35,074 bases of DNA from Chthoniobacteraceae bacterium (GCA_037190965.1 JBBCKI010000007.1:1-35074), one strand, 5' to 3'; positions 9,008 through 34,886 are shown, numbered from the stretch's first letter. Program-made: numbers and translations. Notes: generated from the letters alone by a model not told the origin.

Positions 9008-9021
9008 TGAACAGGCTCCCG

Positions 9022-10095: not shown

Positions 10096-10139
10096 ACAGG
10101 CTTGGAATCGTCCGATCAGCCGGACTTACGCTTTTGAAG

Positions 10140-16678: not shown

Positions 16679-16808
16679 ACGGCGTTTCTACCGCGTCCCG
16701 GGGCATTGGACAGCCTATTTTGAAGAGGTGGGGAGTGCGAAGCCGTGGTGTGGCCCTTGGAAATCAAGAGCGACGATGCGGACCGGCACCCTGCCGGCTG
16801 GAGAAAAA

Positions 16809-16882
16809 TCGGGGCGATAGGATTCGAACCTACGACCTCCTGGTCCCAAACCAGGCGCTCTACCAAGCTAAGCTACACCCCG
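16809..16882 (-). tRNA. tRNA-Pro (anticodon UGG), CCA not encoded
   Basis: Reverse complement CGGGGTGTAGCTTAGCTTGGTAGAGCGCCTGGTTTGGGACCAGGAGGTCGTAGGTTCGAATCCTATCGCCCCGA folds as a cloverleaf, with anticodon stem CCTGG/CCAGG and loop TTTGGGA. Confidence 0.97.
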
Positions 16883-16926
16883 ATAAAACCTGACGCCCAG
16901 CGGTTCGAACCCCGCTGAATGGGGCT

Positions 16927-16954
16927 ACTATGCCCGACTTGAACGGGGCCGCAA
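16927..16954 (-). promoter_or_regulatory. possible sigma-70 promoter for tRNA-Pro
   Basis: On the minus strand, TTGCGG-16 nt-CATAGT lies about 45 nt upstream of the tRNA. Confidence 0.3.
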
Positions 16955-17414: not shown

Positions 17415-19856
17415 ATGCAACGACATCCATTTGAAGGGCCTCGCTTATTGCTTCTGGCAGCGACCATGCTGACGGGAATCTCAGTAACGGGCTCCCGGGC
17501 CGCCGACCTCGTTGCCACCGGTAACCTCGATATTGGCGGAAATGCCGATATCCGTGGCACGACCTTTACATTGGGCTCTTTTACCAACGACAACGCTCAG
17601 CCCGGCGTGATTCTGACCTATACAGATGCCGTTACCACGAATCCCCCCGAGCCGTCATTATTGAGATTCACGGCAAACCGCCCTTCGCATGAATGGGTTT
17701 GGGATCATCAAAATGAAACCCAGACTGGCACCGTGCTGACGATGAAACTCGATGCGGATCATCGACTGAGTCTTTTTTCTCCGAGTGATTCATCGACGCC
17801 TGCCATTGTGCTTGATCCGGAGCTTGGCCAAATAGAAATCAATGGAGTCCCGATTACCGAAGGCGGCGGGTTCAGTTCGCTGACAGTCGGCGCGGGAGCT
17901 TCGGCTGGGGAGTGGGCCATTGCGGCTCTTGGTTGGGATGCTGCCGCCACTGGTTGGCAGTCATTTGCGGCGGGATGGGGACCGACCGCTTCCGGCCTTG
18001 GCTCCATCGCTATGGGGGGAGAGACGACCGCTTCGGGCGAATACTCCACCGCTATGGGAGAGTACACGACCGCTTCGGGCGAATATTCCACCGCTATGGG
18101 GCGGGGTTCGACCGCTTCGGGCGAATATTCCACCGCTATGAGTAGGTCGACCGCTTCGGGCAGATATTCCACCGCAATGGGGGACAGCACCAGAGCTTCG
18201 GGCGATTCCTCTACGGCAATGGGATATGGTACATGGGCTTCGGGGGAAGCCTCCACCGCCATGGGGCAATCCACGATCGCTTCGGGCACGAACTCCACCG
18301 CTATGGGGGTGGAGACGACCGCTTCGGGCAGTTATTCCACCGCTATGGGAGCGGGGACGGTAGCTTCGGGCAATGGCTCCGCCGCTATAGGAGTGGGAGC
18401 GAGAGCTTCAGGCAATATCTCCATCGCAATGGGGAATGCGACCATCGCTTCGGGCGCGGACTCCACCGCTATGGGGGTGGGGACAACCGCATCGGGCGAT
18501 TATTCGACCTCAATGGGGAGAGGGACGACCGCTTCGGACATGGGCTCTATCGCTATGGGGGACAGTACGATCGCTTCGGGCACGAGCGCCATTGCTATGG
18601 GGGGATTTACGACCGCTTCTGGCGATTTTTCCACCGCTATGGGTTATGGGCCAAGTGCTTCGGGAGATTTCTCCACCGCTATGGGGGAGATTACGACCGC
18701 CTCGGGCGATTCCTCTACCGCAATGGGATCATGGACGTACGCCTCGGGCTATTCCTCTATCGCTATGGGGACGGAGACGTACGCCTCGGGTTATTCCTCT
18801 ATCGCTATGGGATACCGCACTGTTGCGGGAGCCTATCAGCTTGTCATAGGAAGTATGAACATCCGGCTTCCTAGCAGCAATGAAGATGTGTCGCCATTTA
18901 GGCCTGCGCTTTCCGATGCTCTATTTATTATTGGAAATGGCTGGTATGAAACCGGCACCTCGCAAGAAAAGCGCAGTAACGCATTCACTGTTAACGCAGC
19001 CGGGGATGTTATGGCGGCAGGCAACCTAACTCTCGGTTCCTTTACGAGAGATGAGCAAGGTAATACCCAATCGGCCATCGCAATTGCCTACACGGATGCC
19101 GCAGAGGCTGTCGAGAACACCCCGGCGACACCATCGCTATTGAAGTTCACAGCCAACCGTTCTTCTCATGAGTGGGTTTGGGAGCACCAGAATGAAACCC
19201 AAACCGCCGCTATTCCGACGATGGTGCTTGATGAGGATCATCGGCTCGTTCTCTTTAGCCCGAGCACACCGTCCGCTCCGGTGATCGTTCTGGATCCCGA
19301 GCTTGGCCAGATTTTGGTGAACGGTGTGGCGCTGGGGCAAGCCTCCACCTTCATTTCCGTGGGAACCGGCGCTTCAGCCAGCGAAAGCTCCATCGCTGTG
19401 GGGAGCTCCGCCAGTGCCAGCGGCACAAATTCTGCCGCATTGGGTAACAGCGTAACAGCCACCGGAAATCATGCTTTCGCGGCGGGTTCCGACACGACAG
19501 CTTCCGGTGAAGCCTCTGGCGCGTTCGGTCGCGGCACCACTGCCGCGGGCGCAAACCAACTCGTGGTTGGAAGATACAACGTCCTCACATCCGGCACGGG
19601 AGACGATCCTGAACCGTCCGATGCCCTGTTCATTGTCGGCAATGGTACATCCACGAGTGAACGCGCCAACGCCATGACCGTAAACGCCGCTGGGGATGTC
19701 GAAGCCGCTGGCAAGGTGACCGCAGGAAGCGACATCACAACCTCGGGGGTGATTGTGTCAACGGGAACCGGACAATCCCGTTTCGCGGGCGCAATCCGCA
19801 TCTTGCCGCAGGGCGACCTGTCAATGGGCGAGTTCACCAACGAGTCGACGCCATAG
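17415..19856 (+). CDS. secreted fibre/adhesin with YadA-head-like 14-aa repeats and a C-terminal QGDLSMG tag (fibre A)
   Basis: Signal peptide from MQRHPF..GSRA. About 21 ASGxxSxAMGxxTx repeats, DALFIIGNG..RSNA connector twice, internal duplication. Ends ILPQGDLSMGEFTNESTP with no beta-barrel anchor. Confidence 0.85.
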   Translation: MQRHPFEGPRLLLLAATMLTGISVTGSRAADLVATGNLDIGGNADIRGTTFTLGSFTNDNAQPGVILTYTDAVTTNPPEPSLLRFTANRPSHEWVWDHQNETQTGTVLTMKLDADHRLSLFSPSDSSTPAIVLDPELGQIEINGVPITEGGGFSSLTVGAGASAGEWAIAALGWDAAATGWQSFAAGWGPTASGLGSIAMGGETTASGEYSTAMGEYTTASGEYSTAMGRGSTASGEYSTAMSRSTASGRYSTAMGDSTRASGDSSTAMGYGTWASGEASTAMGQSTIASGTNSTAMGVETTASGSYSTAMGAGTVASGNGSAAIGVGARASGNISIAMGNATIASGADSTAMGVGTTASGDYSTSMGRGTTASDMGSIAMGDSTIASGTSAIAMGGFTTASGDFSTAMGYGPSASGDFSTAMGEITTASGDSSTAMGSWTYASGYSSIAMGTETYASGYSSIAMGYRTVAGAYQLVIGSMNIRLPSSNEDVSPFRPALSDALFIIGNGWYETGTSQEKRSNAFTVNAAGDVMAAGNLTLGSFTRDEQGNTQSAIAIAYTDAAEAVENTPATPSLLKFTANRSSHEWVWEHQNETQTAAIPTMVLDEDHRLVLFSPSTPSAPVIVLDPELGQILVNGVALGQASTFISVGTGASASESSIAVGSSASASGTNSAALGNSVTATGNHAFAAGSDTTASGEASGAFGRGTTAAGANQLVVGRYNVLTSGTGDDPEPSDALFIVGNGTSTSERANAMTVNAAGDVEAAGKVTAGSDITTSGVIVSTGTGQSRFAGAIRILPQGDLSMGEFTNESTP
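17946..18825 (+). repeat. intragenic 42-bp tandem repeat array (about 21 units)
   Basis: Recurring ACCGCTTCGGGC-N6-TCCACCGCTATGGGG-N6-ACG, in frame within fibre A. One unit is 39 bp. Confidence 0.9.
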
Positions 19857-19981
19857 TCGAGAGCGGTCTATTCCCCTGTCTCACCCTCCCCAAGAAGGAG
19901 CAGTCCCTTCCCCCTGACCATGATTGTCGCTCTCGCCCATCATCATCTGATCCATCCAACCATTCCGAAGGGGCGGTAAAT

Positions 19982-20398
19982 CTGAGGCTACTTGCTGCTG
20001 TCTCGGGGCTTCTCATTCTGCCGTTGATCGTTTTTGCCTCGGCCCCGGGCTGGTGGTCTAACTCCCAGCCGCCGGTCATCGCTCCTAACGCCACTCCGAA
20101 CGATTACGCCGCCGTAAACCAAGGGCAGGTCAAAAATATTGCCAAGGCAGCGGTGGCGGAATTTGACGCCAATCTTCCGGGCGGTGCCGGCGATGTGCTG
20201 CATGCCCTTGTAGATGGCTGGGCCACCCCACAACTCACTGGCACGGCTGCCACCAACGACTATGCAGCCATCAACCTCGGCCAACTCAAAGCCGTCGCGA
20301 CGCCATTCTACGCCCGTCTCATCGACATCGGCTACAGCGACGATTACCCATGGATCGATTCGCCCAACCAGGCAAGCGACTACCGTCCGTCTCAGTGA
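19982..20398 (+). pseudogene. truncated paralogue of the 24095-29149 carrier (N-terminal NDYAAVNQGQ domain only)
   Basis: APGWWSNSQPPVI..NDYAAVNQGQVKNIAKAAVAEF..NDYAAINLGQLK..YPW..NQASDY is highly similar to the N-terminus of 24095-29149. Similarity stops at about 20383, followed by RPSQ*. No in-frame ATG precedes the signal-like stretch, so the start is uncertain. Confidence 0.85.
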
Positions 20399-21216
20399 AT
20401 TCGGAAAAGGCCCCTCAGCGCAAATCGAGTGATATTGAGAAATGGGCATGGTGGCGAGAGATGAGCGAGAAAGACAGGTTTTTTGAATATAAGATGCCAA
20501 TTTCGTTCTACGGCCGAGTTGTAGACGATAAAGGATCGCCGGTTTCAGGTGCAAAGATGCAATGCACATGGACCGATCTAAGCAGCAATGGAACTAGCAA
20601 GCGGGACTTGGAGAGTAATGCAAATGGATTCTTCTCTCTTGAAGGAGCTACAGGCAAAGGCTTGCTCATAGCTGTAAGAAAGGAGGGCTATAAACCTTAT
20701 TTTTCGAAAAATCAATTTAGCTTTGAATATGCTATGTTTGCTGATCCGAACTATCACATTCCGGACAAAGCACATCCGGTGATCTTTGTGCTCCGGAAAA
20801 ACCGCGAAACGGAAGCACTGATTGCTCATCTCAATCAAGAGGCCGAACTCGCCCCAGGTCAGAAGAAGGCTTTTTCCATTGGTCCGGGCGACGCGGCCGT
20901 CTTGGTCGAGCGCTTGCCTAACATTGGCAACGGACCGGGCGGTTGGGCCGCCAGGGTCAGCGTGCCGGGTGGCGGATTGGTGATCTCAACCGAAGAGTTT
21001 CCTTTTGAGGCACCTGAGAGCGGCTACTCCCCAGTTGTGGAAGTGACGGATAAAACGCCGAAGCCACCAACGTGGTCCGGCGACAATGGCGCTGCCTTCT
21101 TCGTAAAGACGCCCAAAGGATATGGTCGCATCACAGTGCGCAATACACCAGGGATGTCGTGGGTCTACGTTTCGTCTTATCTCAATCCAAAACCGGGCAG
21201 CCGCAATTTGGAATAG
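20384..21216 (+). CDS. carboxypeptidase-regulatory-like (beta-sandwich) domain protein, probably 5'-truncated; candidate immunity/accessory gene
   Basis: PISFYGRVVDDKGSPVSGA..SNANGFFSL..VRKEGY motif, ending NPKPGSRNLE. No signal peptide survives. A possible GTG start at 20395 overlaps the upstream TGA. Confidence 0.65.
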
Positions 21217-21300
21217 AATTACTTATAATAACAGATCCTGCGTGTGGGGATGATCGTCGGTCACTCTCCCCTCCGTAGCTCTGCTCCTTGGAGAAGGGAT

Positions 21301-21766
21301 GGGGTCAGTCAACAAATCTCGACAGAAAAGCGGCTTCTGGGTGTAGTTGATAGGGATGCCACGTCAACCAGAATCGAGCATCCCGGAGCGCGCTATCACG
21401 TCATGCGAGGAGAGATCGAAGGGAGCCGATTTTCGAAGACGTAAAGACCGGGACGATTTTGGAAAAGCTTGGGTGGAGCGGCGGAACGCTTCGGCCGGAG
21501 GATCTATGCATGGGTGTTGATGGATAGCCATTACCATTTTCGAATCAAATTTCCGTCACAAGGGGAGAGCGCCACGCTGAGCGAGTGGCGATTGCTTGGA
21601 TGCTGAATAGGGAAACAAATCTGCCGCAAAACTTTGCCTCCATAGAGCTGTCAATGTGAATCAGCAGATAGGGCGATTTCCGAACGAAATCGGCAATCCA
21701 GCGAGAGTGGCGAATGCGGAGGGAGATCAAAATGGGTGGAACTGGTCAAGAATTGTTGACTGATCC
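21301..21766 (+). mobile_element. decayed, internally deleted RAYT element with both inverted ends
   Basis: Left end GGGGTCAGTCAACAAATCTCGACAG; right end GTCAAGAATTGTTGACTGATCC. From 21356 there are frameshifted matches to MPRQPRIE.PGA.YHVM..IYAWVLMD.HYH, and from about 21553 to the C-terminus (ERVAIAW.L..TN..NV.QQ..RF) of 30382-31440. Confidence 0.85.
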
Positions 21767-22014
21767 ATTCTCACCATTCGAGCCGATTTTTAGTTTATGA
21801 TTGCGCTATGTTTAACGGAAGGTGCCAAATATTTTACGCTTGACTGATGATTCAGTTTCAAACCAAGGTGTTATTTAATGTTCACGGAATCAAGGGAATC
21901 AACAAGCTTCAGAAACGCCAGATGGACTGACTGGTAGGGCAAGCTCGGCAATTGGAGTAAGGAAATGATCAGGATCCCCCGACCGAAGCATTCGGTCCAC
22001 CCATTTTACAGAAT

Positions 22015-24012
22015 ATGAAGCCTTCAAAGAAGAAATCTTATCTTGGTGCGGTAATAGCGACGGTGGCTCTATCGATTTCACCCGGTCTACATGGCGATGA
22101 CCTGGATGTCGTAGGAAACCTTGATGTAACTGGAAATGTCGACATCCATGGCGATTCCCTTACTCTTGGCGCATGGGATGACAATTCCGCTATGCCTGGG
22201 TTTGGGCTTTTATATGACGATGGGACGACAGGAAGTATTTTATTGCAGGCGTCCCGGTCTTCAGCGCAATGGCTGTTTCAGCATCAGGCCAGCGGCGGAG
22301 GTTGGTCGAATGCGTTCAAAATTGATGCCACGCACCGTTTGATTTTGTTCGGCGCCAGTCCCGCCAATTCCGAAAGTATCATTCTCGATCCCATCGGGAG
22401 CAGCAGCTTTGGTACTTCCGTAAATTTCCTTGGCTCGAACAATCAGATGCCCAATCAAACGCTGGCTTCGACCAGCAGCATCCTGACTGCGGGGCTCGGC
22501 GATGCCCGATATTTGAGACCTGGCGCTTTACTTTCCGGCACGTCCTCGCACACTTTTGGTGTTGCTCAGAATCCTTCATGGAACGGACAAGGCTTGACCA
22601 TTAAGGCGGGGGATGGTGCGGCAGGCGTAGCGGATAGGAGTGGAGGTAGTTTGATCCTATCCAGCGGAGCGGCTAATGGTGCTGGGTGGGGGGGATCAAT
22701 TTTACTTCAAACGGCCTCCAATCCCGCGGCATCGGGAACGTCAACCCGTTCAATGGTAACGCGGATGACCATCGATGGCCGGACTGGAAATGTCGGGATT
22801 GGCGCGGGTGCTGGCATGGGGTTCACATGGGCTAATATAGCTGGCAATCTGGATGTGTCTTATGGGGGAGCACCCGCAACTCTTGTTCTTGGTGCGGATC
22901 TTAATTTGCATACACGCTCTGATGCCACCTACAAGAAATTCACTATCGCGTGCCCTCCCTATTACAATTCCCAGCATGCAATTACCGTGATCGGGGCATC
23001 GATTTATAGCGATAGGAGTGAATTATTTATTGGTGGAGCCTCGTCGACGCAACTAGGCCCCACGGATGTGATTATTATGACGCACCTGTCGGAGACGTCA
23101 GCGAATGGCGAAGAGCGAATGCGATTTTACCGGAATGGAAGCATTACGGTCAACGGCAATCTGGTTCAGAATACCACCTTCAGAATCAAAGGAAACGTCG
23201 ACGCCAACTTATTCGTGACCAGTGGATCCAATGACAGCGTCGGGGTCGGTGTAGCCTCACCTCAGGCAAAGCTTCATGTAGGGGGTGGTCTCAAAGTGGA
23301 TGGGAGTGCTTCGATTTCTGGCGGAATTAATGTCAGTGGTTCAGCAAGTATTACCGGGCCTCTCGCAATTTCAGGCACCGGCTCTCTTAGGCTCCCGGAC
23401 GGGACTGTGCTTTCGGGCAGCAATACACTCCAGAGCGTAATCACCAGTGGAACGGCTTTGACGATCTCAGGAGCCGTCTCCGCAAGCCAGGTTACGGGTC
23501 TGTCTCCCGTTGCCACCAGCGGAAATTACACTTCGTTAACTGGCTTGCCCACAATCCCATCTAATACCAATCAGCTCGCCAATGGAGCAGGTTTCATTAC
23601 GTCAAGCGGAACTGCGGCATTCGCTCAAGCCAGCGGGACAGCCACCGCTTTGAGCGGGACCATACAGGCCATACAGGTCGCTGGCTTGTCCGGAGTAGCC
23701 ACAAGCGGCGACTACGCCTCGTTATCCGGCTTGCCGACAATCCCTACTGATACCAACCAACTCGCCAACAGTGCGGGCTACGTAACGGCTAGCGGCACAA
23801 CCAGCGGCATCACTCTTTCAGGAACGACAACCGCAACCGGCAGTATCGTCGCCACAGGAGGCGTTGTTGTAACGGGCACCGCAGTGGAGGTCACCTCAGG
23901 GACGACAACCGTGACCAAAATCGTTTCATCGGGGAGCAGTCAACTGGTTCTCATTCCCGAGCAGGGAGATCTCTCGATGGGAACCTTCACGGCAGGTCGA
24001 ATTCCCCAATAA
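22015..24012 (+). CDS. secreted fibre with phage-tail-fibre-like motifs and a C-terminal QGDLSMG tag (fibre B)
   Basis: Signal peptide and an N-module shared with fibre A. Motifs RMTIDGRTGNVGIG, ERMRF, VGVGVASPQAKLHVGG, and 2x VATSGxYxSLxGLPTIPxxTNQLANxAG. Ends LIPEQGDLSMGTFTAGRIPQ. Confidence 0.8.
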   Translation: MKPSKKKSYLGAVIATVALSISPGLHGDDLDVVGNLDVTGNVDIHGDSLTLGAWDDNSAMPGFGLLYDDGTTGSILLQASRSSAQWLFQHQASGGGWSNAFKIDATHRLILFGASPANSESIILDPIGSSSFGTSVNFLGSNNQMPNQTLASTSSILTAGLGDARYLRPGALLSGTSSHTFGVAQNPSWNGQGLTIKAGDGAAGVADRSGGSLILSSGAANGAGWGGSILLQTASNPAASGTSTRSMVTRMTIDGRTGNVGIGAGAGMGFTWANIAGNLDVSYGGAPATLVLGADLNLHTRSDATYKKFTIACPPYYNSQHAITVIGASIYSDRSELFIGGASSTQLGPTDVIIMTHLSETSANGEERMRFYRNGSITVNGNLVQNTTFRIKGNVDANLFVTSGSNDSVGVGVASPQAKLHVGGGLKVDGSASISGGINVSGSASITGPLAISGTGSLRLPDGTVLSGSNTLQSVITSGTALTISGAVSASQVTGLSPVATSGNYTSLTGLPTIPSNTNQLANGAGFITSSGTAAFAQASGTATALSGTIQAIQVAGLSGVATSGDYASLSGLPTIPTDTNQLANSAGYVTASGTTSGITLSGTTTATGSIVATGGVVVTGTAVEVTSGTTTVTKIVSSGSSQLVLIPEQGDLSMGTFTAGRIPQ

Positions 24013-24094
24013 CGGGCGAAGGATACAATTCCTCTTACCATATCCAGGGGGCGCTTGGTTCCGGTGATTTTCGCTCCCATCTCTCACTTTTATC

Positions 24095-27000
24095 ATGCAT
24101 CGACCCTCTCCTGACTCTGAAAAAGGCCTGGCAAGCCTACGGCTTTTTGTTTCTTTTCTAGGTTTGTTCAGTTTGTCTGTACTTGTCCTCGGCGCGGCTC
24201 CTGCTTGGTGGTCCACATCCAACCCTCCAGTAGTCAACGACGCAACCCCCAACGATTACGCGGCCGTTAATCAGGGGCAGGTTAAGAACATTGCCAAAGC
24301 GGCGGTGGCCGAGTTCGAACTCCGTCTCCCCGGAGGGGCAGGGGTTGAACTGCACGATTTGGTTGATGGCTGGGAAACTCCTGGCGGAGCAACCAACGAC
24401 TACGCTGCTGTCAACCTTGGACAATTGAAGGCACTGGCCAAGCCGTTTTACGACCGGCTTAAAGCGGTAGGATATGTGGCAGATTACCCGTGGGCCGATT
24501 CGACGAATCCAGCAAACGATTATGCAATGGCCAATATCGGCCAGGTTAAGAATCTCTTCGCTTTCGACTTAGCCAGTATCGATGCCATTCATGACACCGA
24601 CCAGAATGGGCTGCCTGACTGGTGGGAAAAATACTATTTTGGCACGATTGGCAGTGATCCAGAGGGTGACGAAGATGGGGACGGACTCTCCAATCTCGCG
24701 GAATTCCAAGCAAAGAGCAACCCCAAGGATTATTATAGCCAGGGTAATGCGGAGCTTTCGCCCGTGCTCTCCATCGTTGGCGGTAATTACCAGTTTGGCC
24801 TTTCGGAGGCGCTTTTGGAGAAACCACTGAGGGTCGAGGTTCGAAATGCTTCCGGGGGCAGCCTCCTCGTCAATGCTCCCGTCCGCTTTTCGGTAGGTGA
24901 AGACGACGGCATTTTCCGGCTAAGCGAAAATGGCGTGGATGCAGGCCGGGAGATTACGATCCGAACGGATGCGGAAGGCATTGCGTCAGTCTTTTATCGG
25001 CAGGGAAGCGCCCTCGGAGTTTTTAGCGCCATCACGGCCCAGGCCAAACCTACGGTTGAAGTCACCCTTCACTCCGCAACCGTGCCGGAAGATCGTCTGG
25101 TTGGTCACTGGCGTTTTGAGGAGGCAACCGGAAACCTGGCTGCCGACAGCGGCCCGTTTGGGTTCGATGCAATCTTGGTCAATCCTCAATGGTCACAACG
25201 ATACACGGGGGAAGGCGACCTCGTTTTCAGTGGGCCAGTCTCCGAAGGAGGGAATGACTCCCACGTACTGATTGAGGAGCCGACTCATCGCGCCTTCGAT
25301 TTTAACTCGGAGAGTTTTACCCTCGGCGCATGGGTGCGATATGATGAAACGGCGCTCCCCGGGCGGATCATCAGCAAAGGAAACGCCGGTTCCACCCCCG
25401 GTTATTATCTCGCCGTCTCTTCGGACGGAACTTTGGAATTCGGCATCGGCACTTCCGCGAACAGCGCGGCTGAGTCCGTTTTGGTTCGTACGGTGGAAGC
25501 CTTTGACGACAATGAATGGCACCACGTTGCCGCCGTCGTGGACCAGGCCGGAGGAACGCTCCGCGTTTACGTGAACGGCATCCCGGCAGTCCTGGAGAAG
25601 GAAACCGGCACGGGAGGATCGGTGGATGAAGAGGATGAAGGCCTCTTTTCTTTTCCTTCGCTGGAGCACCTGAACGCGGGAGCGCCAGAAGATCCGGCAA
25701 GCCCGCTTTTGTTTGCTAGTCGGGGAGGGAACGATGCCTTTTTCAAAGGCGCGCTGGATGAGGTGCGTCTGTATCGGAAGGCGTTAAGCCAGGAAGAGGT
25801 GGGCGAGCTTTACCGGAGCGAATCCCCGCTCACGGCCAAAAACGCCACGCTCAACATCGAGGAAGACACCCTTGGCGTCCTGCTCCTTCCAGTGGAAGGC
25901 GGCGGCTCAACGCCCGCGCTCTATTCCATCGTGACCCCGCCGCAAAATGGCACCCTCGTTCTTGAGGGGCAAACGGCCAATTATTACCCCAATGCTCACT
26001 ACAACGGAAGCGACAGTTTCCGGTTCAAAGTCACCAAGGGTGCGAGGGAAGCAGAGGCGAACGTGACCATTACCGTCACCCCCATTGATGATCCCCCGCT
26101 GGTCAGCGTCGGCGGCGGGCGGAGCGTCCTCCTCTCCGGCACCTTGAATCTTACCGCCGTAGTGACTGACATTGACACCTCGCCCGAGAACATCCGCATT
26201 CAGTGGATGAAGGTCTCTGGCCCCGGCGAGGTTACGTTTGGGACACCGAAGGAAAATACCACCACCGCCACCTTCAGCGCAGCGGGCATGTATCTTCTGC
26301 GCGCAAGCGCCTATGATGGCACCTCCACCCGAAGCGATTCGCTCGTCGTCACCGTCCAGGAGGGAGAGGAAGGCGATGGTCCCACGGTATCCCTGGAATC
26401 GCCCGCCAATGATGTCGGGTTTGATTTCCAAACGCCCATTCTTCTCCAAGCCAGCGCGCTTGCAAGCGGAACGAGGAATACGATCGAAAAAGTTGAATTT
26501 TACGAGGGATCTCGAAAGATCGGTGAGGCCACCGCCGTTGACATCGGCAGCGGCTTTTATCAGATCCACTGGACTCCGTCTCGGATCGGCGCGTATGCGA
26601 TCAGCGCCCTGGCCGTGGAGAGCACCGGGCAAAGCCAGTTTTCGGCGGCACGCACGTTAAGGGTGACGCAACAGGGGTGGTTCAGCGCGGGAGGAACTCC
26701 CGCCGGTAACGAAGGGTACAGCGGCAGCGGCGGTAGCGGCGGCATTTCGGAGGGTTCCGGAACCGGCCCCGGCGGCGGCCACGGCCCCGGAGGTGGAGGC
26801 GGTGGAGGGGGAAACAGCGCGGGCGGCGGAGGCGATGGCTTCGGTAATCCCAATGGGACTGATCCAAACTCGATCGACAGCGACGGCGATGGTTTGAGCG
26901 ACGCCGAAGAAGCCGAGCTTGGGACCGATCCGCTGATTAAGGATACCGACGGAGACGGTTATACAGACCTTGTCGATGGTTGGCCGAGGGATCCTGATCT

Positions 27001-29149
27001 TTATCCTCCGCGTCTGCCCAATCCCCATTACTTGGTGGTACCGCTTGCGAGTCTTCATTCTGACAATGCAACATGTTATTACGGTCAAATGAACGAGCAT
27101 TTTCAGTTTGTACGGACTACCGAGCAGGGATGGTATTGGGACGCTGCTGATACGAATCCTCCAGTGTGGGTTCCCTTGGATAGCATCGATGAGCACAAAA
27201 CGATCAATAACAGAGGAGATGTAACTGGGCATATGCTCATAGATCATTTCTCCCCTTATCCAGGGTACGTAGATCAGGCCGCAGCCACTTGGAGTGCCTC
27301 AAGTGGGACGACAATGATCGACACTGTATTGGAAAAGCCGTATCCAGAAGGTTATCGAAGTACTTCCGCTTTTGCGATAAATGATGATGGAGTTGCTGTT
27401 GTAGCGGATTTTAGAGATGGGAATCCTAAATACTTTGTTTGGAGCGCAGGCGGCAAGGTGTTGCTCCCCAATAACTTTGAGCCATGGGCTATAAATAACG
27501 GTGGGGTTGTTATCGGAAACGGACTATGGGACGGTGGAGTGCTGCACGGTGTCGGAGATGGATTTTTTTGGGGCATTAGCAATTCAGTTGATTATCCAGT
27601 TGCGATCAGTAATTATTTAATATGTTCTATTTGGACTAGAGATCTCATTTCAGGGTGGTCATCGAAACCTTTGCTTGTGCGTGACCGACTCAATCGGCGC
27701 GACGTGCTTGGCTTCGGATCTGCTATCAACGATAGATGTGAAATTGCTGGCGAATTTGGTCCAGGCACTAGTTTTGATGTTATTCGAAATGGAGAAAGGT
27801 TCACATTGGGTAATTTGGGTGATGGATGGAACGTTAGCTGGGTGTACAATATAAACAATCAGGGGGTTATTTTTGGGGAAGCCATCAAGAATGGAAGCCA
27901 AAAGGAAGAGCAAGTATTACTCTTGCCGGTTGAGTTAAAGGATATCAAGAAAGTCGCCGATCTCGACGACGACGTTTATATCGAAGACATCGGGCCTAAG
28001 AAGCCCGGAGAATCCGAGAATGCTTATATTCAACGCCCTTTAAGTAATCGACAAATCGCCTGGATTGAACCACACGGCGCGGTTAACGGCACCGATCCAG
28101 AAATGCCCCATTTGGTGGCTAAGCTCTCAGGACCGGCAAAGCTGAAAGCGCGGTGGAAACTGGAAGTGGAATACAAACGGGGCAACGGCTACCGAGACTA
28201 TTACGTCAATGACTTTACGCAATTCGAGGATACGGTAAGGATCCCAGCTAACGGTGACTACACTGCGGAGATGAATGCTGATCAGGAGTGGCGGATTTTC
28301 GAGACGACGGACTGGATAGACGAAATTGCTCAGCGGGGCTTTTTCGGTGGTACGGCTAAACTTTATGTTTGGCTTCCAAGTCAAGGAGTGGCACCTATAG
28401 AGCCATTTATGACTTTCCGTATCGGCGGTAAAAATCCTGACCAAACGAAGGCCAAGACGTTCATCAACAGCGAGGCAGGAAGCGCATTCTGGTACGCCTA
28501 TGCCATCGCGAAGCATGAGACGTTTGGCCGCGTCAGGGAAAACGGGGTGGTCCGATTCTACAACCAGTTTTATACCGACTACAAGAGTTCCAAGATTGGT
28601 GACGCCGCAATTGATATGGGTTGGGCAGCTTACGCCAAGGCATGGCCGTTATATAACCTTGACCGGGACAAATATGAAAGCGGTCCAAAAAAAGGCCAGC
28701 GATACCAGAACGGTCCCGGTGGATATGGGATGTACCAGGTAACCCTAGGACCAAAGCTTCCGAATGACGCCATTCCTCAAGGAGGAGAAGGCTTTATAAC
28801 ACGCGGTCAAATTTGGAATTGGCAAGATAACGCTCGCCGTGCTATCGAGGAACTGCAAGGAAAGGCGTCTACAGCTCAATCGCTTCATAATGGACTAACA
28901 TCCACCTATCCTAATTCTGGAGCCATCCCCAGCTATAAGCACTTCTCTGGATTGGAAGCCATTGTGATCACTTACTATAACGGAATGGGCGGCGGACAGA
29001 TTCGCCGTGTTGCAGTAAATGGATATAGGACAAGACCCAGGAGTTGCTGGGCTCCCTTCGCCGGAGGTTGGGAGTTTCTACATAATAGATATGTAGATAC
29101 TGGCGCCAAGACAGGATATGTTCATGCTGTGGATAAGCACGTTGAATAA
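24095..29149 (+). CDS. large secreted multidomain protein, putative polymorphic toxin with a lysozyme/transglycosylase-like C-terminus
   Basis: Signal peptide; 3x NDYAxxNxGQ(V/L)K; DxDxDG Ca-binding repeats; LamG (LVGHWRFEE..WHHVAAV..FKGALDEVRLY); cadherin/PKD/Ig-like domains; Gly-rich linker; IN(N/D)xG propeller-like repeats; tip motifs AIAKHET, GYGMYQVT, YYNG. Confidence 0.8.
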   Translation: MHRPSPDSEKGLASLRLFVSFLGLFSLSVLVLGAAPAWWSTSNPPVVNDATPNDYAAVNQGQVKNIAKAAVAEFELRLPGGAGVELHDLVDGWETPGGATNDYAAVNLGQLKALAKPFYDRLKAVGYVADYPWADSTNPANDYAMANIGQVKNLFAFDLASIDAIHDTDQNGLPDWWEKYYFGTIGSDPEGDEDGDGLSNLAEFQAKSNPKDYYSQGNAELSPVLSIVGGNYQFGLSEALLEKPLRVEVRNASGGSLLVNAPVRFSVGEDDGIFRLSENGVDAGREITIRTDAEGIASVFYRQGSALGVFSAITAQAKPTVEVTLHSATVPEDRLVGHWRFEEATGNLAADSGPFGFDAILVNPQWSQRYTGEGDLVFSGPVSEGGNDSHVLIEEPTHRAFDFNSESFTLGAWVRYDETALPGRIISKGNAGSTPGYYLAVSSDGTLEFGIGTSANSAAESVLVRTVEAFDDNEWHHVAAVVDQAGGTLRVYVNGIPAVLEKETGTGGSVDEEDEGLFSFPSLEHLNAGAPEDPASPLLFASRGGNDAFFKGALDEVRLYRKALSQEEVGELYRSESPLTAKNATLNIEEDTLGVLLLPVEGGGSTPALYSIVTPPQNGTLVLEGQTANYYPNAHYNGSDSFRFKVTKGAREAEANVTITVTPIDDPPLVSVGGGRSVLLSGTLNLTAVVTDIDTSPENIRIQWMKVSGPGEVTFGTPKENTTTATFSAAGMYLLRASAYDGTSTRSDSLVVTVQEGEEGDGPTVSLESPANDVGFDFQTPILLQASALASGTRNTIEKVEFYEGSRKIGEATAVDIGSGFYQIHWTPSRIGAYAISALAVESTGQSQFSAARTLRVTQQGWFSAGGTPAGNEGYSGSGGSGGISEGSGTGPGGGHGPGGGGGGGGNSAGGGGDGFGNPNGTDPNSIDSDGDGLSDAEEAELGTDPLIKDTDGDGYTDLVDGWPRDPDLYPPRLPNPHYLVVPLASLHSDNATCYYGQMNEHFQFVRTTEQGWYWDAADTNPPVWVPLDSIDEHKTINNRGDVTGHMLIDHFSPYPGYVDQAAATWSASSGTTMIDTVLEKPYPEGYRSTSAFAINDDGVAVVADFRDGNPKYFVWSAGGKVLLPNNFEPWAINNGGVVIGNGLWDGGVLHGVGDGFFWGISNSVDYPVAISNYLICSIWTRDLISGWSSKPLLVRDRLNRRDVLGFGSAINDRCEIAGEFGPGTSFDVIRNGERFTLGNLGDGWNVSWVYNINNQGVIFGEAIKNGSQKEEQVLLLPVELKDIKKVADLDDDVYIEDIGPKKPGESENAYIQRPLSNRQIAWIEPHGAVNGTDPEMPHLVAKLSGPAKLKARWKLEVEYKRGNGYRDYYVNDFTQFEDTVRIPANGDYTAEMNADQEWRIFETTDWIDEIAQRGFFGGTAKLYVWLPSQGVAPIEPFMTFRIGGKNPDQTKAKTFINSEAGSAFWYAYAIAKHETFGRVRENGVVRFYNQFYTDYKSSKIGDAAIDMGWAAYAKAWPLYNLDRDKYESGPKKGQRYQNGPGGYGMYQVTLGPKLPNDAIPQGGEGFITRGQIWNWQDNARRAIEELQGKASTAQSLHNGLTSTYPNSGAIPSYKHFSGLEAIVITYYNGMGGGQIRRVAVNGYRTRPRSCWAPFAGGWEFLHNRYVDTGAKTGYVHAVDKHVE

Positions 29150-29153
29150 AATT

Positions 29154-29717
29154 ATGAAATTGATGCCATTGGTCATATATTTTCTTTCCGTAAGCATGGT
29201 GTTTGCGGATGTCCTCAATCCGGTATCTGATCTGAAGAATAGATTGGGGCTTGCTGCCTCGAATATCGTATATAAATGGAGTGCAGACCTAGACGGAGAT
29301 GGGCATTCTGAAGTGTTCCTCTGCCTAAAAGAGTCTTATCAGGAAGACGTTCGAGATAGACAAGTGCCATCTTGGGATGTTTATTTTTCTGCTGGAGGCG
29401 GGAGCTATTCTCGACCGGAAGGTATTGAGGATGGAAATCCAAAGGGTATTGGATATGGCTTCCCCAAAATCGATGCCGATCAAGTGTTTGTCGGGCAAAT
29501 CTCCCAGCTTAACAAGCATGGCATCGTGACGATCCAAACTGATACTAGTCGGGATGGGAGATCGGTGGCTCGCATCTATGCCTATACGCGTGATGGAAAT
29601 AACCTCAAAGAAACCACCCTTGCTGAATATAATCCCGACCAGGGCAACGCGATTTATGACCAATATCTGGCGGACAATGTGCGAACTAAGGTTGCACTTC
29701 AAGAAATTGCGCCTTGA
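29154..29717 (+). CDS. small exported protein, putative cognate immunity protein
   Basis: Starts 4 bp after the upstream stop. Signal peptide MKLMPLVIYFLSVSMVFA, a DLDGDG motif, and low GC like the toxin tip. Confidence 0.65.
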   Translation: MKLMPLVIYFLSVSMVFADVLNPVSDLKNRLGLAASNIVYKWSADLDGDGHSEVFLCLKESYQEDVRDRQVPSWDVYFSAGGGSYSRPEGIEDGNPKGIGYGFPKIDADQVFVGQISQLNKHGIVTIQTDTSRDGRSVARIYAYTRDGNNLKETTLAEYNPDQGNAIYDQYLADNVRTKVALQEIAP

Positions 29718-29734
29718 AGAGGCCAAGCAGGGGC

Positions 29735-29861
29735 GGGGTCAGTCGACAAATTTTGACAGAAGGGCGGATGCTGGGGTGCTGGAAATGGGGGTCATGAAAT
29801 GGGTGAAATGGGGGTCAGGCGACATATCTGGGAAATGGGGGTCAGGCGACATATCTTGACA
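29735..29861 (+). repeat. orphan RAYT left end followed by the stuttered left end of a second RAYT element
   Basis: 29735 GGGGTCAGTCGACAAATTTTGACAGAAGGGCGG resembles 21301. GAAATGGG restarts at 29782, 29796, 29805 and 29832. Confidence 0.8.
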
Positions 29862-29885
29862 GGTGTGAATGAGTAAGATCTGAGA

Positions 29886-30240
29886 ATGGCACGCAGCATT
29901 CGGATCGAGTATCCTGGCGCCTTTTACCATGTAATGGCGCGGGGGAACCGCCGGGAAAGTATCTTTTTTGACGATGAAGATCGGCGCTTTTTCCTTGGAA
30001 CGCTTGCCGAAGCGTGCGGGATGACGGGATGGCGAATTCATGCGTGGGTGTTGATGGGCAATCATTATCATTTGTTAGTGGAGACGCCGGAATCGAATTT
30101 GGTGACCGGCATGCAGTGGCTGCAGAATACCTATACGAGGCGTTTCAATACCAGGCATCGGCTTTGGGGGCGGCTCTTTGGAGACTGCTACAAGGCGGTG
30201 CCGGTCGAGGAGGGTGGTTACTATTACGAATCGTTGCTCC
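29886..30240 (+). pseudogene. truncated REP-associated tyrosine transposase (RAYT, Y1/HUH)
   Basis: MARSIRIEYPGAFYHVMARGN and HUH motif NHYHL are present. It breaks at ..YESLL, just before the catalytic DYIHLNP. The rest of the ORF to 30374 is translated repeat DNA. Confidence 0.9.
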
Positions 30241-30242
30241 AA

Positions 30243-30367
30243 CAAAAAAAGGGGTCAACAAAAAAGGGGTCCAAAAAAGGGGTCTGTCAACAAATATTGA
30301 CAGAAAGGCAGCCGGTAAGCAAAAAAGGGGTCTGTCAACAAATATTGACAGAAAGGCAGCCGGTAAG
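30243..30367 (+). repeat. stuttered left end of the RAYT element, including an exact 48-bp tandem duplication
   Basis: C(A)6-7GGGGTC occurs at 30243, 30259, 30272 and 30320. 30272-30319 is identical to 30320-30367. Confidence 0.92.
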
Positions 30368-31448: not shown

Positions 31449-31455
31449 TTTTCTT

Positions 31456-34455: not shown

Positions 34456-34456
34456 T

Positions 34457-34837
34457 ATGTATGTATTGAGAGAGGGCCTGCTTATCTCTCTGGAGGTATT
34501 TCCGGTTTTTACCAGCTTTCAGATTTTGATTGCATTAAGCTTGACTGTTTTTCTGGGGGTGGCGATATTCGGCCCTCGAAGAGGTGAAGCCTATAAGGGG
34601 CTTGTATTGTGTCTTGGTGCAATATCCTTCCTTAGCGGCTTCATTAAATTCTTAAAGGCGGTTTTGCATTGGTATCTCATTGATGTCAGAGCAGGCATAG
34701 CGAGTACAATTTGGACAAGTTATTCGTCATTTGAGTGGGCGGCGCTTCTCTTTCCAGCATTCCTCGGTTGTGTTGCGCTCTGGCTGTCGATTTGCTTTCA
34801 AATTTTCGTCCTTTTCCCATCCATCAGGAGAAAATAG
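34457..34837 (+). CDS. small multi-TM protein, putative RHS immunity protein
   Basis: ATG lies 1 bp after the RHS stop. About 3 hydrophobic segments and low GC like the toxin tip. Confidence 0.6.
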   Translation: MYVLREGLLISLEVFPVFTSFQILIALSLTVFLGVAIFGPRRGEAYKGLVLCLGAISFLSGFIKFLKAVLHWYLIDVRAGIASTIWTSYSSFEWAALLFPAFLGCVALWLSICFQIFVLFPSIRRK

Positions 34838-34886
34838 TGCAGCCAAAGCATCCGGCATACCAAATGCTGACGAAAAAATACCCCTT

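Follow-up and report, generated by a model that had tools for sequence, protein, structure and literature searches.

Do two neighbouring genes, one encoding an exported fibre and the other an exported multidomain protein, form a system for the display and delivery of toxins? We addressed this question for a stretch of 35,074 nucleotides (the window) from a Chthoniobacteraceae bacterium. The source organism is a soil bacterium. A preliminary description of this DNA had reported the same gene order twice, each time with a signal-peptide fibre ending in a conserved tail, a signal-peptide carrier with a shared start, and a small downstream gene. We found two fibre/carrier units, one intact (fibre 2, carrier 2 and a small exported protein) and one decayed, in which an intact fibre 1 is followed by a remnant of carrier 1 (Table 1). 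The repeated order was therefore correct in part, with one of the two units being dead. Both fibre ORFs encode a signal peptide and the conserved tail, and both carrier ORFs start with AP.WWS...NDYAAVNQGQVKNIAKAAVAEF (68% identity over 120 amino acids, E = 5e-50), as had been described. The small downstream gene was not common to the two units: in the decayed unit a 288-aa ORF stands in place of the missing part of carrier 1; it shows no relationship to the small gene after carrier 2 (best BLASTP E = 6.5) and is outside the fibre/carrier module. On balance, the fibre and carrier genes probably constitute an undescribed two-gene fibre-to-cargo coupling module of the Verrucomicrobiota that is often used for polymorphic toxins.

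Table 1. Features of the window, in order of position.
Feature	Position	Strand	Basis
tRNA-Pro (TGG)	16808..16883	-	ARAGORN; GC profile
Fibre 1	17415..19856	+	signal peptide, N-module x2, YadA-head array, tail ILPQGDLSMGEFTNESTP
Carrier 1 remnant (pseudogene)	19952..20398	+	65-68% identity to carrier 2 N-terminus
288-aa ORF, replaces rest of carrier 1	20350..21216	+	sub-threshold CarboxypepD_reg
48-nt palindrome-bearing motif, then decayed IS200-like Y1 transposase remnant	21294..21700	+	direct-repeat families D2, D3
Fibre 2 (665 aa)	22015..24012	+	signal peptide, N-module, Gly/Ser/Thr-rich body, tail LIPEQGDLSMGTFTAGRIPQ
Carrier 2 (1684 aa), intact	24095..29149	+	ORF, Pfam, NCBIfam, structure model
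Carrier N-domain core	24188..24600	+	alignment A1; structure model; complex model
Carrier 2 C-terminal tip (423 aa)	27878..29146	+	homologues, alignment A2, structure model
Small exported protein, likely start 29154	29118..29717	+	signal peptide; conserved neighbour
Two IS200-like Y1 transposase genes	29728..31440	+	Pfam Y1_Tnp E 6.3e-11, 1.2e-13; repeats D2, D3
5'-truncated or orphan RHS gene	31441..34455	+	RHS_repeat E 8.2e-33 (Pfam); TIGR03696 E 7.6e-19, aa 656-734
139-aa protein, hydrophobic by eye, overlaps RHS gene end	34418..34837	+	ORF; position

An N-module (38% identity over 110 amino acids, E = 3e-18) is common to the two fibres, as is the C-terminal tail. The frame of fibre 1 is open from 17313, and the likely start given in Table 1 is followed by the signal peptide. 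Fibre 1 matched YadA_head of Pfam in 10 stretches (E = 8.5e-58), its DNA has 42-nt periodic repeats at 17941-18819, and an HMM of the N-module placed copies at amino acids 79-188 and 584-681 of the open frame. The body of fibre 2 contains two ATSG[ND]Y.SL.GLPTIP repeats and matched no Pfam, NCBIfam or PHROG family. Fibre 1 has no membrane anchor, and YadA_anchor was absent from both fibres in the Pfam scan. Fibre bodies in general are mosaic, with YadA-head repeats and collagen-like or phage tail-fibre-like segments, and the N-module of this genome was found again by HMM in only 3 of the 40 N-domain loci described below. The conserved tail is approximately 15 amino acids long and reads P-x-G-D-(L/I)-S-M-G-x-(F/Y)-T-N.

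The core of the carrier N-domain consists of a P.WW motif and three NDYA..N.GQ.K repeats, each followed by a helix. Residues W7, G30, Q31, W102, G118, Q119 and K121 are invariant in alignment A1, and across 37 N-domains the G-Q pair is invariant in repeats 1 and 3 and at least 90% conserved in repeat 2. Repeat 3 of one relative (L050) matched YadA_stalk of Pfam just above the gathering score (29.0 bits vs 28.4, E = 1.4e-6); a second relative (L072) matched weakly, and matches at E up to 10 were found in only 3 of the 37 N-domains. The N-domain is a set of three YadA-stalk-like repeats in a single chain, and from the structure model (pLDDT 86.3) we predict that they fold as a pseudo-threefold helical spindle. 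The remnant of carrier 1 retains a signal-peptide-like stretch with no usable start (the sole in-frame start, TTG at 20024, is within the hydrophobic core of the signal peptide) and repeats 1 and 2. Its ORF ends after 124 amino acids, inside repeat 3, and the HMM match covers positions 1-114 of 172. The 288-aa ORF beyond it scored 27.4 bits against CarboxypepD_reg, below the Pfam cut-off of 32.3.

Fibre and carrier genes are linked in this genome and across the phylum. A six-frame motif scan of the 73 contigs found the QGD.SMG tail in exactly three ORFs, each time 15-16 amino acids from the end, and the NDYA..N.GQ.K repeat in exactly three ORFs. All three tail genes are directly upstream of the three N-domain genes, a pairing that is far beyond chance. 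The third pair is on contig C5, where the N-domain is fused to an RHS giant of at least 3997 amino acids. We then took 40 loci around full-length N-domain matches from a sample of 401 genomes of the phylum. There was a tail gene upstream on the same strand in 34 of these: a strict tail ORF ending within 900 nt in 17, a strict tail 3.8-6.0 kb upstream with another gene intervening in 4, and an adjacent relaxed tail in 13. The remaining 6 had no tail gene. The background among 3861 other ORFs was 0 strict and 8 relaxed matches. For the reverse test we searched the 401 genomes with a degenerate DNA pattern for Q-G-D-[LIFM]-x-M-G, which occurred at 52 places in 43 genomes, compared with 4 for the reversed control. 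We fetched 30 of these places; 11 proved to be true C-terminal tails, of which 10 had an N-domain gene within approximately 6 kb downstream. The gene adjacency expected from the preliminary description is thus conserved, and tail and N-domain both occur in many families of the Verrucomicrobiota.

We modelled a complex of three fibre tails, as three copies of one chain, with one N-domain, using our own alignments. The 3:1 complex had an ipSAE of 0.86 (0.89, 0.82 and 0.86 in separate runs), whereas the best control reached 0.30. The runs shared at least 92% of contacts, and the partner pLDDT was at least 85. In the calibration, which is only rough for a 3:1 case, 116 of 157 solved complexes and 2 of 215 mismatched pairs attained the score mark. 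In the model, Met70 of tail copies 1, 3 and 2 contacts residues 28-34, 76-82 and 116-119; these stretches correspond to the conserved N.GQ.K of repeats 1, 2 and 3, respectively. The fibre tail is therefore predicted to dock directly on the carrier N-domain, with its conserved Met at the G-Q of each repeat. A caveat is that the model may itself be an echo of solved structures of trimeric-autotransporter necks. The proposal that the conserved fibre ends and the carrier N-domain serve as assembly parts gains support from this model; the further suggestions that the fibre picks the target, that the carrier delivers, and that the conserved parts act in trafficking remain inferences.

These findings suggest how the module could work. 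Gene 1 would provide a Sec-exported, anchorless mosaic fibre with a body of typically trimeric parts and a conserved tail. Gene 2 would provide a second Sec-exported protein, in which three neck/stalk-like motifs (NDYA..N.GQLK plus helix) follow one another over the first ~130 residues and form a socket; each tail of a fibre trimer would plug into one of the three repeats. In this way a variable, trimeric fibre would be joined to cargo that is monomeric, whether the cargo is part of the socket protein itself or an RHS giant from a neighbouring gene. In the intact unit of the window, the N-domain is fused to a LamG/Ig/TSP3/propeller-like cargo with a lytic-transglycosylase-like tip, accompanied by the gene for an exported candidate inhibitor or immunity protein. 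Export may use a secretin pathway, and the fibre may be the targeting part.

Cargoes are diverse, and N-domain proteins have very different bodies and C-termini, as had been anticipated for the carriers. RHS repeats were present in all 8 giants scanned, 7 of them next to a separate N-domain gene and 1 the fused carrier on C5. Other fused bodies contain CBM6/35, beta-helix, PAD-like, DUF1800, F5/8 type C, fn3 or LamG domains; CBM6/CBM35 bodies occur with beta-helix, and the right-handed beta-helix is also among the fused cargoes. TSP3 calcium-binding repeats were ubiquitous among the carriers and relatives scanned. Polymorphic toxin systems, as defined by Zhang et al. (2012; PMC3482391), combine a conserved N-terminal trafficking or presentation region with variable C-terminal domains toxic to competitors, and have a cognate immunity gene immediately 3' of the toxin end. 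The N-domain is likewise a conserved N-terminal region with variable ends, being found on RHS, lysozyme-like, PAD-like and beta-helix bodies. Because CBM6/35, beta-helix, PAD-like, DUF1800 and F5/8 type C cargoes also occur, the module is not toxin-specific.

The C-terminal part of carrier 2 has the features that had been ascribed to it: a low-GC, swappable tip tightly followed by the gene for a small exported protein. After the signal peptide and N-domain, carrier 2 contains LamG, Big_9/PKD/Big_7, a Gly-rich linker, TSP3, a repeat (propeller-like) region, a beta-sandwich and the lysozyme-like tip. The GC content falls abruptly from 0.64 to ~0.47 at about nt 27000 and stays low through the small gene. 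The tip begins at the junction LLPVELKD. Its residues 16-185 are the beta-sandwich, and residues 185-423 are lysozyme-like or lytic-transglycosylase-like, with an invariant Glu (HET), GGYGMYQ and YYNG. In alignment A2, E214, G282 and Q287 are invariant, and conservation is at least 90% at Y367, N368 and G369. Family-1 lytic transglycosylases (GH23) have a catalytic Glu with ES, GLMQ and AYNxG-type motifs. The tip model (pLDDT 89.0) matched in VIA to MltC (Z 7.0, rmsd 4.3, 170 aligned), MltE (Z 6.6, rmsd 3.6, 146 aligned), Slt (6.2), MltF (6.2), the g-type lysozyme/PliG entry (5.7) and Tse3 (4.6). Sequence searches of Pfam and PDB gave no match to the tip, nor did Foldseek at E up to 0.001. The modelled fold is lytic-transglycosylase-like, and together with the conserved residues it points to peptidoglycan cleavage. 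The tip may act against other bacteria, although a peptidoglycan-cleaving domain would first have to pass the outer membrane of its target, a point against this reading. In 254 representative homologues, the tip lay at the C-terminus of every host protein that had additional N-terminal sequence. Of the best 150, only 11 had the N-domain, the tip being on unrelated N-termini otherwise. At the level of sequence comparison, this shows the tip to be a mobile C-terminal module.

The small gene encodes a signal peptide, and its ORF has a 32-nt overlap with the end of carrier 2. All 3 of the closest tip loci have a homologue of it immediately 3' of the tip gene (phmmer E = 4e-36 to 7e-43), and none of 3 distant tip loci has one. 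The language-model neighbours of the small protein include a cluster of PliI lysozyme inhibitors (score 0.92), which we treat as a lead only. The small protein is a candidate immunity protein or lysozyme inhibitor for the tip. The pair resembles Tse3/Tsi3 and the lysozyme inhibitors PliG and PliI in the lysozyme-like fold of the tip and in an exported partner encoded immediately downstream. Unlike Tse3, the tip is not T6SS-delivered; it ends a Sec-exported multidomain protein and has no family match at the sequence level.

Several known systems share parts of this architecture. Trimeric autotransporters (YadA, Hia, BadA; type Vc) resemble the module in the strong YadA_head array of fibre 1, the stalk/neck motif (..D.A.N.GQLK) of the carrier repeats, and the threefold head-to-stalk junction modelled here. 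In contrast to a type Vc adhesin, the module has head repeats and stalk-like motif in separate genes, the motif occurs three times in one chain rather than once in each of three chains, and that chain continues into a monomeric cargo rather than a coiled-coil stalk and anchor. A search of the entire genome (97% complete) gave no YadA_anchor match, and we rejected this assignment. The VgrG-PAAR-Rhs arrangement of T6SS is similar in that one pseudo-threefold adaptor (the cap geometry of PAAR) sits on a trimeric needle or fibre and carries an RHS or other toxin, fused or associated, and in the gene order fibre, adaptor, RHS, small downstream gene. Here, however, all parts have Sec signal peptides and the folds are unrelated; a T6SS effector was rejected, with no VipB/TssC in the genome and no PAAR, VgrG or Hcp family in the ORFs of the window or the relatives scanned. 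Two-partner secretion (CdiA/CdiB) was also rejected: there was no TpsB or TPS family in the window, and the only ShlB-family gene of the genome is on another contig (C28). The reported absence of T6SS, CdiB/TpsB, autotransporter-barrel and PEP-CTERM families held for all window ORFs scanned. We found no linked anchor, export machine or outer-membrane route, with a T2SS-F gene nearby in only 1 of the 40 loci. Apart from the few YadA_stalk matches, neither conserved part matches a described secretion system or a Pfam or NCBIfam family, in agreement with the view that these are lineage-specific parts.

The same docking could serve a general, cellulosome-like surface-display scaffold for adhesins and polymer-degrading enzymes, with toxins as occasional passengers and the lysozyme-like tip used for feeding on or remodelling cell-wall material and not for killing. 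We regard this as rather unlikely. It would account for the carbohydrate-binding and other non-RHS bodies, the ubiquitous TSP3 repeats, and the public annotation of stand-alone N-domain proteins as 'sugar-binding' or 'thrombospondin type 3 repeat'. It fits less well with the finding that every giant scanned was an RHS protein, with the conservation of an exported partner whose gene overlaps the end of the tip and accompanies it, the two forming a 3' module of distinct GC content that occurs on unrelated N-termini, or with the orphan RHS end and small downstream gene elsewhere in the window. It is highly improbable that the fibres are debris of a prophage or tailocin and their pairing a relic with no current function. 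Matches to PHROG families (tail fibre, tail spike, minor tail or virion structural protein) in 7 of the 13 fibres scanned, and two N-domain loci on contigs of a viral collection, speak for such an origin. But these were the only two loci in 2.9 million viral contigs, and an RHS gene was among the ORFs beside the N-domain gene there. In addition, the 40 gene maps had no recurrent neighbour family except the module genes and upstream 'F1' proteins, and no capsid, portal, terminase, sheath or baseplate family was found by Pfam in the subset of neighbours scanned; the signal peptides and the conservation across families likewise argue against debris.

An improbable reading is that the N-domain is an SLH-like anchor on envelope glycan that holds the cargo on the surface of the producer, the fibre being merely co-regulated and its tail being, for example, a sorting or processing signal. 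SLH pseudo-trimers (Sap, SpaA) ranked first in two independent fold searches, and like the N-domain they have three tandem repeats in one chain that form a pseudo-threefold helical spindle. One cluster of language-model neighbours had SLH in 65% of members (score 0.82; a lead only). In Gram-positive bacteria, RHS toxins of the WapA type begin with three wall-binding repeats, which counts for an anchor; they are exported by means of a signal peptide, and their RHS repeats lead into a variable C-terminal toxin with an immunity gene downstream. The proteins studied here share the signal peptide, the three-repeat N-domain, an RHS or variable end and a small downstream gene. However, the fold matches were weak (Foldseek E = 0.25; VIA Z 6.6 and 6.0, both below 8, with the next row at 4.8), and SLH (PF00395) had no sequence match in the 37 N-domains at E up to 10. 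No sequence relation could be detected between the N-domain and the wall-binding repeats of WapA, and here a dedicated fibre gene is paired with the N-domain in a diderm host. The modelled ligand of the N-domain is a protein tail and not a pyruvylated glycan, the conserved residues of tail and N-domain meet at an interface scoring well above controls, and the two genes are neighbours far beyond background. These points favour the coupling module.

Both units lie in an accessory region of low GC beside tRNA-Pro, together with IS200-like copies and the orphan RHS end. The tRNA gene forms the border, with a GC content of 0.61-0.67 on the housekeeping side vs 0.46-0.59 in the accessory region (GC profile). 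A direct-repeat search showed that repeat families D2 and D3 are common to 21294-21700 and 29728-30569. Of the two Y1 transposase genes, the first (29886-30374) is truncated with its 3' end duplicated and the second is at 30382-31440; the 48-nt motif is 5' of each. The frame of the RHS gene opens 1 nt past the end of the second, and its N-terminal part is therefore taken to be missing. The gene has the layout of an RHS/YD-repeat toxin, with repeats and an RHS-associated core before a C-terminal region of ~190 amino acids that contains an HEYFH motif and had no match in a Pfam search. It is only 24-26% identical to other RHS genes of the same genome. The 139-aa protein at its end matched no Pfam or NCBIfam family and, judging from its position, may be an immunity protein for the orphan RHS tip.

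A gene for a fibre, here a signal-peptide protein that has no anchor and ends in a conserved tail, lies upstream of a gene for the N-domain (the socket: three NDYA..N.GQ.K repeats that begin the carrier proteins of the window) in many genomes of the Verrucomicrobiota. We searched 401 genomes sampled across the phylum with the 172-aa carrier N-terminus and obtained matches in 124 (E up to 1e-5), many spanning only the TSP3-like end of the query. Forty loci were taken around matches that span most or all of the N-domain, and the same-strand upstream ORFs were scored, with a strict tail defined as G-[DG]-[LIV]-x-M-G-x-[FY] within the last 30 residues of the ORF. An ORF with the strict tail ended no more than 900 nt from the N-domain start in 17 of the 40 loci, and at four the strict tail was 3.8-6.0 kb upstream with another gene in between. 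A relaxed tail variant (for example, PTGDLSSGTFTN or PQGDIPPF) adjoined the N-domain gene at 13 loci, and six had no tail gene upstream of the N-domain. The background, 3861 further ORFs of 60 aa or more from these loci, contained no strict and eight relaxed tails.

In the reverse test, Q-G-D-[LIFM]-x-M-G was sought as a degenerate DNA pattern and found at 52 places in 43 of the 401 genomes (reversed control, four places). We fetched 30 of these places; 12 were within 30 residues of the ORF end, and 11 had the full tail context by eye. The N-domain was inside the 3-kb locus for six of these 11 tails and 3.8-6 kb downstream for four more; one tail, a short fragment, was without an N-domain gene. 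The preliminary description had made linkage of the two genes in other genomes the test of its proposal, and linkage was found at 34 of 40 loci in the forward direction and for 10 of 11 tails in the reverse direction. Based on both sets of counts, we conclude that the pair is a conserved module. Stand-alone N-domain homologues are named from Verrucomicrobia, Kiritimatiellia, Opitutaceae and Chthoniobacterales, and are annotated only as 'thrombospondin type 3 repeat', 'sugar-binding' or 'hypothetical'; some bear the names of Opitutaceae TAV strains. Pfam, NCBIfam and PHROGs contain no description of the tail or the socket, and we found no description of the pair in the literature outside subscription-only papers.

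The N-domain is strongly conserved at a few positions and has the features of a threefold repeat. W7, G30, Q31, W102, G118, Q119 and K121 are invariant in 37 aligned N-domains, and G78, Q79 and K81 are at least 90% conserved. The resulting pattern is P.WW followed by three repeats, in each of which N.GQ.K runs into a helix. There is no Pfam model for the core of the domain. The Pfam YadA_stalk model (the neck/stalk motif of trimeric autotransporters) matched repeat 3 of one relative with 29.0 bits (gathering score 28.4) and a second relative weakly; overall, 3 of the 37 members matched at E up to 10. The AlphaFold model of the N-domain (pLDDT 86.3, pTM 0.76) has a bridge-then-helix unit that occurs three times, and two independent fold searches ranked the SLH domain first. 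SLH is a single-chain pseudo-trimer of three repeats. The Foldseek matches to SLH had E values of 0.25-0.38 and a probability of about 0.6. Those from VIA-align had Z scores of 6.6 (rmsd 4.9, 108 residues aligned) and 6.0, the next row being 4.8, all in the range (Z <8) that, by the tool's own warning, may mirror just a common arrangement. We therefore read them as favouring a pseudo-threefold spindle and do not assign the domain to SLH. A comparison of the N-domain profile to PDB sequences gave LRR and EF-hand noise only.

Modeling of the complex supports, but does not demonstrate, binding of the tail to the N-domain. The last 50 residues of fibre 2, in triplicate, were folded with residues 1-140 of the N-domain, with a separate alignment for each chain. 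The 3:1 model scored 0.86 (runs of 0.89, 0.82 and 0.86), and the best of three controls scored 0.30. At least 92% of the contacts were common to the runs, and partner pLDDT was at least 85. The score mark is reached by 116 of 157 solved complexes and by 2 of 215 mismatched pairs, a calibration that is only roughly valid for self-made alignments and several chain copies. The modeled interface is residues 59-79, the tail, in every fibre copy. The N-domain contacts of Met70 of GDLSMG differ by copy: Met70 of copy 1 touches residues 28-34, that of copy 3 residues 76-82 and that of copy 2 residues 116-119, which correspond, in this order, to the conserved N.GQ.K of repeats 1, 2 and 3. Thus, the most conserved residues of both families meet in the model, one tail per repeat. 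The docking model may partly echo solved autotransporter necks and, if so, would reflect likeness rather than binding.

The window contains two such units (see table), and their fibres and carrier starts are related. The N-modules of fibre 1 and fibre 2 are 38% identical over 110 aa (E 3e-18), the C-terminal tail is also common to both, and the starts of carrier 1 and carrier 2 are 68% identical over 120 aa (E 5e-50). The carrier 1 frame has no start codon until the middle of the hydrophobic core of the signal peptide and ends within the third repeat, and by its reading frame we judge this carrier to be dead. Because of this, and because the ORF that follows is unrelated to the small exported protein at the end of unit 2, the window holds one intact and one decayed unit and not a full duplication. 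The earlier view that the same gene order occurs twice thus stands for unit 2 and for the related fibres and carrier starts, but not for the carrier of unit 1 or for its small gene as a counterpart of that in unit 2. In a six-frame scan of the genome that contains the window, the QGD.SMG tail was found in exactly three ORFs, each time 15-16 residues from the end, and the NDYA..N.GQ.K repeat was also found in exactly three. The third pair is on contig C5, where the gene for a 955-aa fibre immediately precedes that for a carrier. This carrier has at least 3997 aa and extends past the contig end; its domains include LamG, seven Big_7 and RHS repeats.

Features of the window and its fibre/carrier region
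Feature	Position (nt)	Details
Window	entire contig C7, 35,074 nt	genome of 4.2 Mb in 73 contigs
Ordinary genes	1-16000	DUF2167, phosphoglucose isomerase, sigma-54 response regulator, GlnD, MgtC, ADP-ribosylglycohydrolase, 1954-aa TPR protein
tRNA-Pro(TGG)	16808-16883	
Fibre 1	17313/17415-19856	
Carrier 1 remnant	19952-20398	
288-aa ORF	20350-21216	unrelated to 29118-29717
IS200-like transposase	about 21294-21700	decayed
Fibre 2	22015-24012	
Carrier 2	24095-29149	
Small exported protein	29118-29717	
Two IS200-like Y1 transposase genes	29886-31440	
RHS gene	31441-34455	5'-truncated
Small ORF, 139 aa	34418-34837	hydrophobic by eye; overlaps RHS gene
48-nt motif, four copies	21294-21341, 29728-29775, 30272-30319, 30320-30367	

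The fibre bodies are mosaic: that of fibre 1 has YadA_head (E 8.5e-58), and others have Kelch, a weak match to collagen or no known family. Common to all fibres in the alignment of their ends are only the last ~15 residues. The fibre N-module was dropped as a system-wide part; it is present in 3 of the 40 loci only and is therefore lineage-local. PHROG tail-fibre, tail-spike, minor-tail or virion structural families were matched by 7 of 13 fibres scanned. A viral origin of the pair was rejected, as only two loci were found among a viral contig collection. The YadA-head array of fibre 1 (17941-18819) consists of 42-nt (14-aa) repeats, seen as 15 overlapping 168-nt copies with 61-75% identity. 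One public-run contig has a 48-nt back-step in this array, so the repeat number may vary.

At the loci of other genomes, the usual gene order is an optional protein that we call F1, the fibre, the N-domain protein, and one or more giants (very large proteins). F1 has a variable N-terminal part (RCC1 or LamG), TSP3, and a conserved C-terminal region of ~80 aa with the motif YVD..G.D.YDG...GPKKT...GD.I.L..G.Y.E, which is like a DUF1565-type beta-helix cut short after its first turns. It is upstream of the fibre at 9 of the 40 loci (L048, L051, L052, L061-L064, L066 and L070), a related set is present at three more (L054, L065 and L069), and there is no F1 gene at the loci of the window's genome. 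F1 is possibly a third component of the assembly. In many genomes the N-domain protein is separate (230-360 aa) and has its own signal peptide, as does the giant encoded downstream. The stand-alone N-domain proteins of seven loci (L040, L050, L053, L056, L057, L073 and L075) have a short hydrophobic C-terminal strand, for example ITITTPSNGSTVP or VVAITYPRDGEVLP, that resembles the first strand of an Ig-like domain.

The cargo differs among loci. RHS repeats were found in all eight giants scanned, seven encoded beside a separate N-domain gene and one being the C5 carrier, to which the N-domain is fused. They were found in 2 of 19 whole N-domain proteins scanned from other genomes, mostly fusions; the remaining bodies of these 19 are PAD-like, right-handed beta-helix, CBM6/CBM35, F5/8 type C, DUF1800, fn3, LamG and long TSP3 arrays. 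Matches of carrier 2 to TafC and Amuc_1099 (NCBIfam) were dropped, as they reflect no more than its LamG domain and a stretch that is TSP3-like; the TafC papers, in the parts accessible, deal with haloarchaeal fimbriae.

The tip, the last 423 aa of carrier 2, starts at the junction LLPVELKD, which is found again in homologues. Among 1.84 billion representative proteins, a full HMMER scan identified 254 tip homologues, 44 of them at E up to 1e-30. The tip is always C-terminal where the host protein (up to about 2600 aa) reaches further N-terminally, and many of the short entries consist of just the tip or a piece of it. The N-domain is on only 11 of the best 150 homologues, the other N-termini being different, and there were no RHS repeats in 30 homologues scanned with Pfam. 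The closest homologues (52-70% identity) align to carrier 2 only from about residue 1245. Base composition changes in carrier 2 at about nt 27000, where GC drops from 0.64 to 0.47 and remains low across the small gene; this fits replacement of the 3' module. No independent tip variant was present in contigs from two DNA runs of one study, which re-cover the window. The homologues P0010, P0012, P0077 and P0138 have a different conserved N-terminus (a signal peptide, then LD.N.NG.SDLWE...), which could be another presentation module for this candidate toxin. A distant homologue (35% identity) is present at L081, in an Isosphaeraceae MAG of the Planctomycetota, and the range of the tip therefore exceeds the Verrucomicrobiota.

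The tip sequence had no match in Pfam or the PDB, and Foldseek on the tip model found nothing at E up to 0.001. In the model (pLDDT 89.0, pTM 0.89), a beta-sandwich precedes a domain with matches to lytic transglycosylases and lysozymes: MltC (Z 7.0), GH124 (6.8), MltE (6.6), Slt and MltF (both 6.2) and, lower, g-type lysozyme (5.7), MltD (5.5) and the T6SS muramidase Tse3 (4.6). E214 (AKHET) and G282 and Q287 (GGYGMYQ) are invariant in the tip alignment, and Y367-N368-G369 are at least 90% conserved; we regard these as similar to the ES, GLMQ and AYNxG motifs of family-1 lytic transglycosylases. A signal peptide is encoded by the small gene that overlaps the end of carrier 2. Homologues of this partner are in the same overlapping position at the three closest public tip loci (45-49% identity, phmmer E 4e-36 to 7e-43), and none was detected at three distant tip loci (34-35% identity). 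Language-model neighbours of the partner include a PliI lysozyme-inhibitor cluster (score 0.92), which we treat as a lead only. These properties fit a predicted peptidoglycan-cleaving toxin with a predicted periplasmic immunity protein.

Family searches were run over the whole genome, which is 97% complete. There was no T6SS sheath gene (VipB/TssC) and no YadA_anchor in this genome; there is one ShlB-family gene, on another contig (C28), and there are five secretin genes. These searches agree with the preliminary description, in which no known secretion-system signature had been seen. Linkage to a T2SS was considered and dropped, as a GspF-like gene was upstream at only 1 of the 40 loci (L067) and is not a conserved neighbour. 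Given the five secretins, the missing T6SS sheath and YadA_anchor, and the single GspF-like gene, export by Sec and then by a secretin pathway seems plausible.

The best-supported reading is that the pair is a fibre-to-cargo coupling module. A highly variable, anchorless fibre would be trimeric, and its three identical tails would dock on the single-chain pseudo-trimer with which the cargo, or a small adaptor, begins. Frequent cargo would be polymorphic toxins, either RHS or, here, the lysozyme-like tip with its candidate immunity protein, and there is carbohydrate-binding or enzymatic cargo as well. The fibre might choose the target, the complex might be kept on the producer or released, and the cell-wall enzyme would have to pass through the target's outer membrane. 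The modularity of the carrier and toxin parts had been recognized at the outset, and our results agree with it, but the socket is not restricted to toxins.

The module would work like the head-neck junction of trimeric autotransporters, but is split over two genes. It is like VgrG-PAAR-Rhs in logic, and like WapA as a Sec-dependent RHS toxin with a three-repeat N-terminus, yet by the defining tests of each it falls outside all three. We rate the assembly principle as new, within polymorphic toxin and surface fibre systems. The accessible part of a 2012 survey (PMC3482391) lists Verrucomicrobia RHS and polymorphic toxins simply as Sec/T2SS cargo. TSP3/dockerin giants and SLT domains in Omnitrophota appear in a giant-gene preprint (10.1101/2023.11.21.568195), the accessible part of which makes no mention of the fibre/socket module. 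It is conceivable, although we consider it rather unlikely, that the module is a 'split neck' in which three identical fibre tails clamp a single-chain pseudo-trimer, so that a swappable trimeric receptor-binding fibre aims Sec-exported RHS or other toxins. This would be a Verrucomicrobiota-wide contact- or fibre-guided delivery system of the rank of CDI or T6SS-Rhs, independent of both, and a new way to build an extracellular weapon.

With their predicted 3:1 interface and two short motifs open to mutation, the fibre and socket would give a handle on how toxins of Verrucomicrobiota are presented and aimed. If true, the module would be an unusual answer to the general problem of joining a homotrimer to a monomer, the neck logic of an autotransporter without the autotransporter. 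With models of the tail and socket, many proteins now called 'sugar-binding' or hypothetical would receive new annotations, and toxin loci of Verrucomicrobiota from soil and gut would be flagged.

The GC content of the window drops from 0.61-0.67 to 0.46-0.59 exactly at tRNA-Pro, and the fibre, carrier, RHS and transposase genes are all past this tRNA. The region 16900-35074 resembles an accessory island adjoining tRNA-Pro, on the 5' side of the tRNA; no integrase was seen in it. In the window, an IS200-like Y1 transposase gene or its remnant comes after each fibre/carrier unit, and upstream of each such gene or remnant is a 48-nt motif that includes a short palindrome (GTCAACAAAT.TTGAC-like). 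Its last two copies are an exact tandem duplication within the 3' end of a truncated transposase ORF. The RHS gene starts 1 base past the end of a transposase gene and is without its N-terminal part; it is an orphan or beheaded toxin end. Displacement from the end of the C5 RHS was rejected, as identity to it, and to the other RHS genes of the genome, is only 24-26%. Together with the overlapping 139-aa ORF, the orphan end is a second candidate toxin/immunity pair. The C-terminal ~190 aa of the orphan RHS gene (within 33700-34455) have no family match and include an HEYFH motif that is zincin-like by eye.
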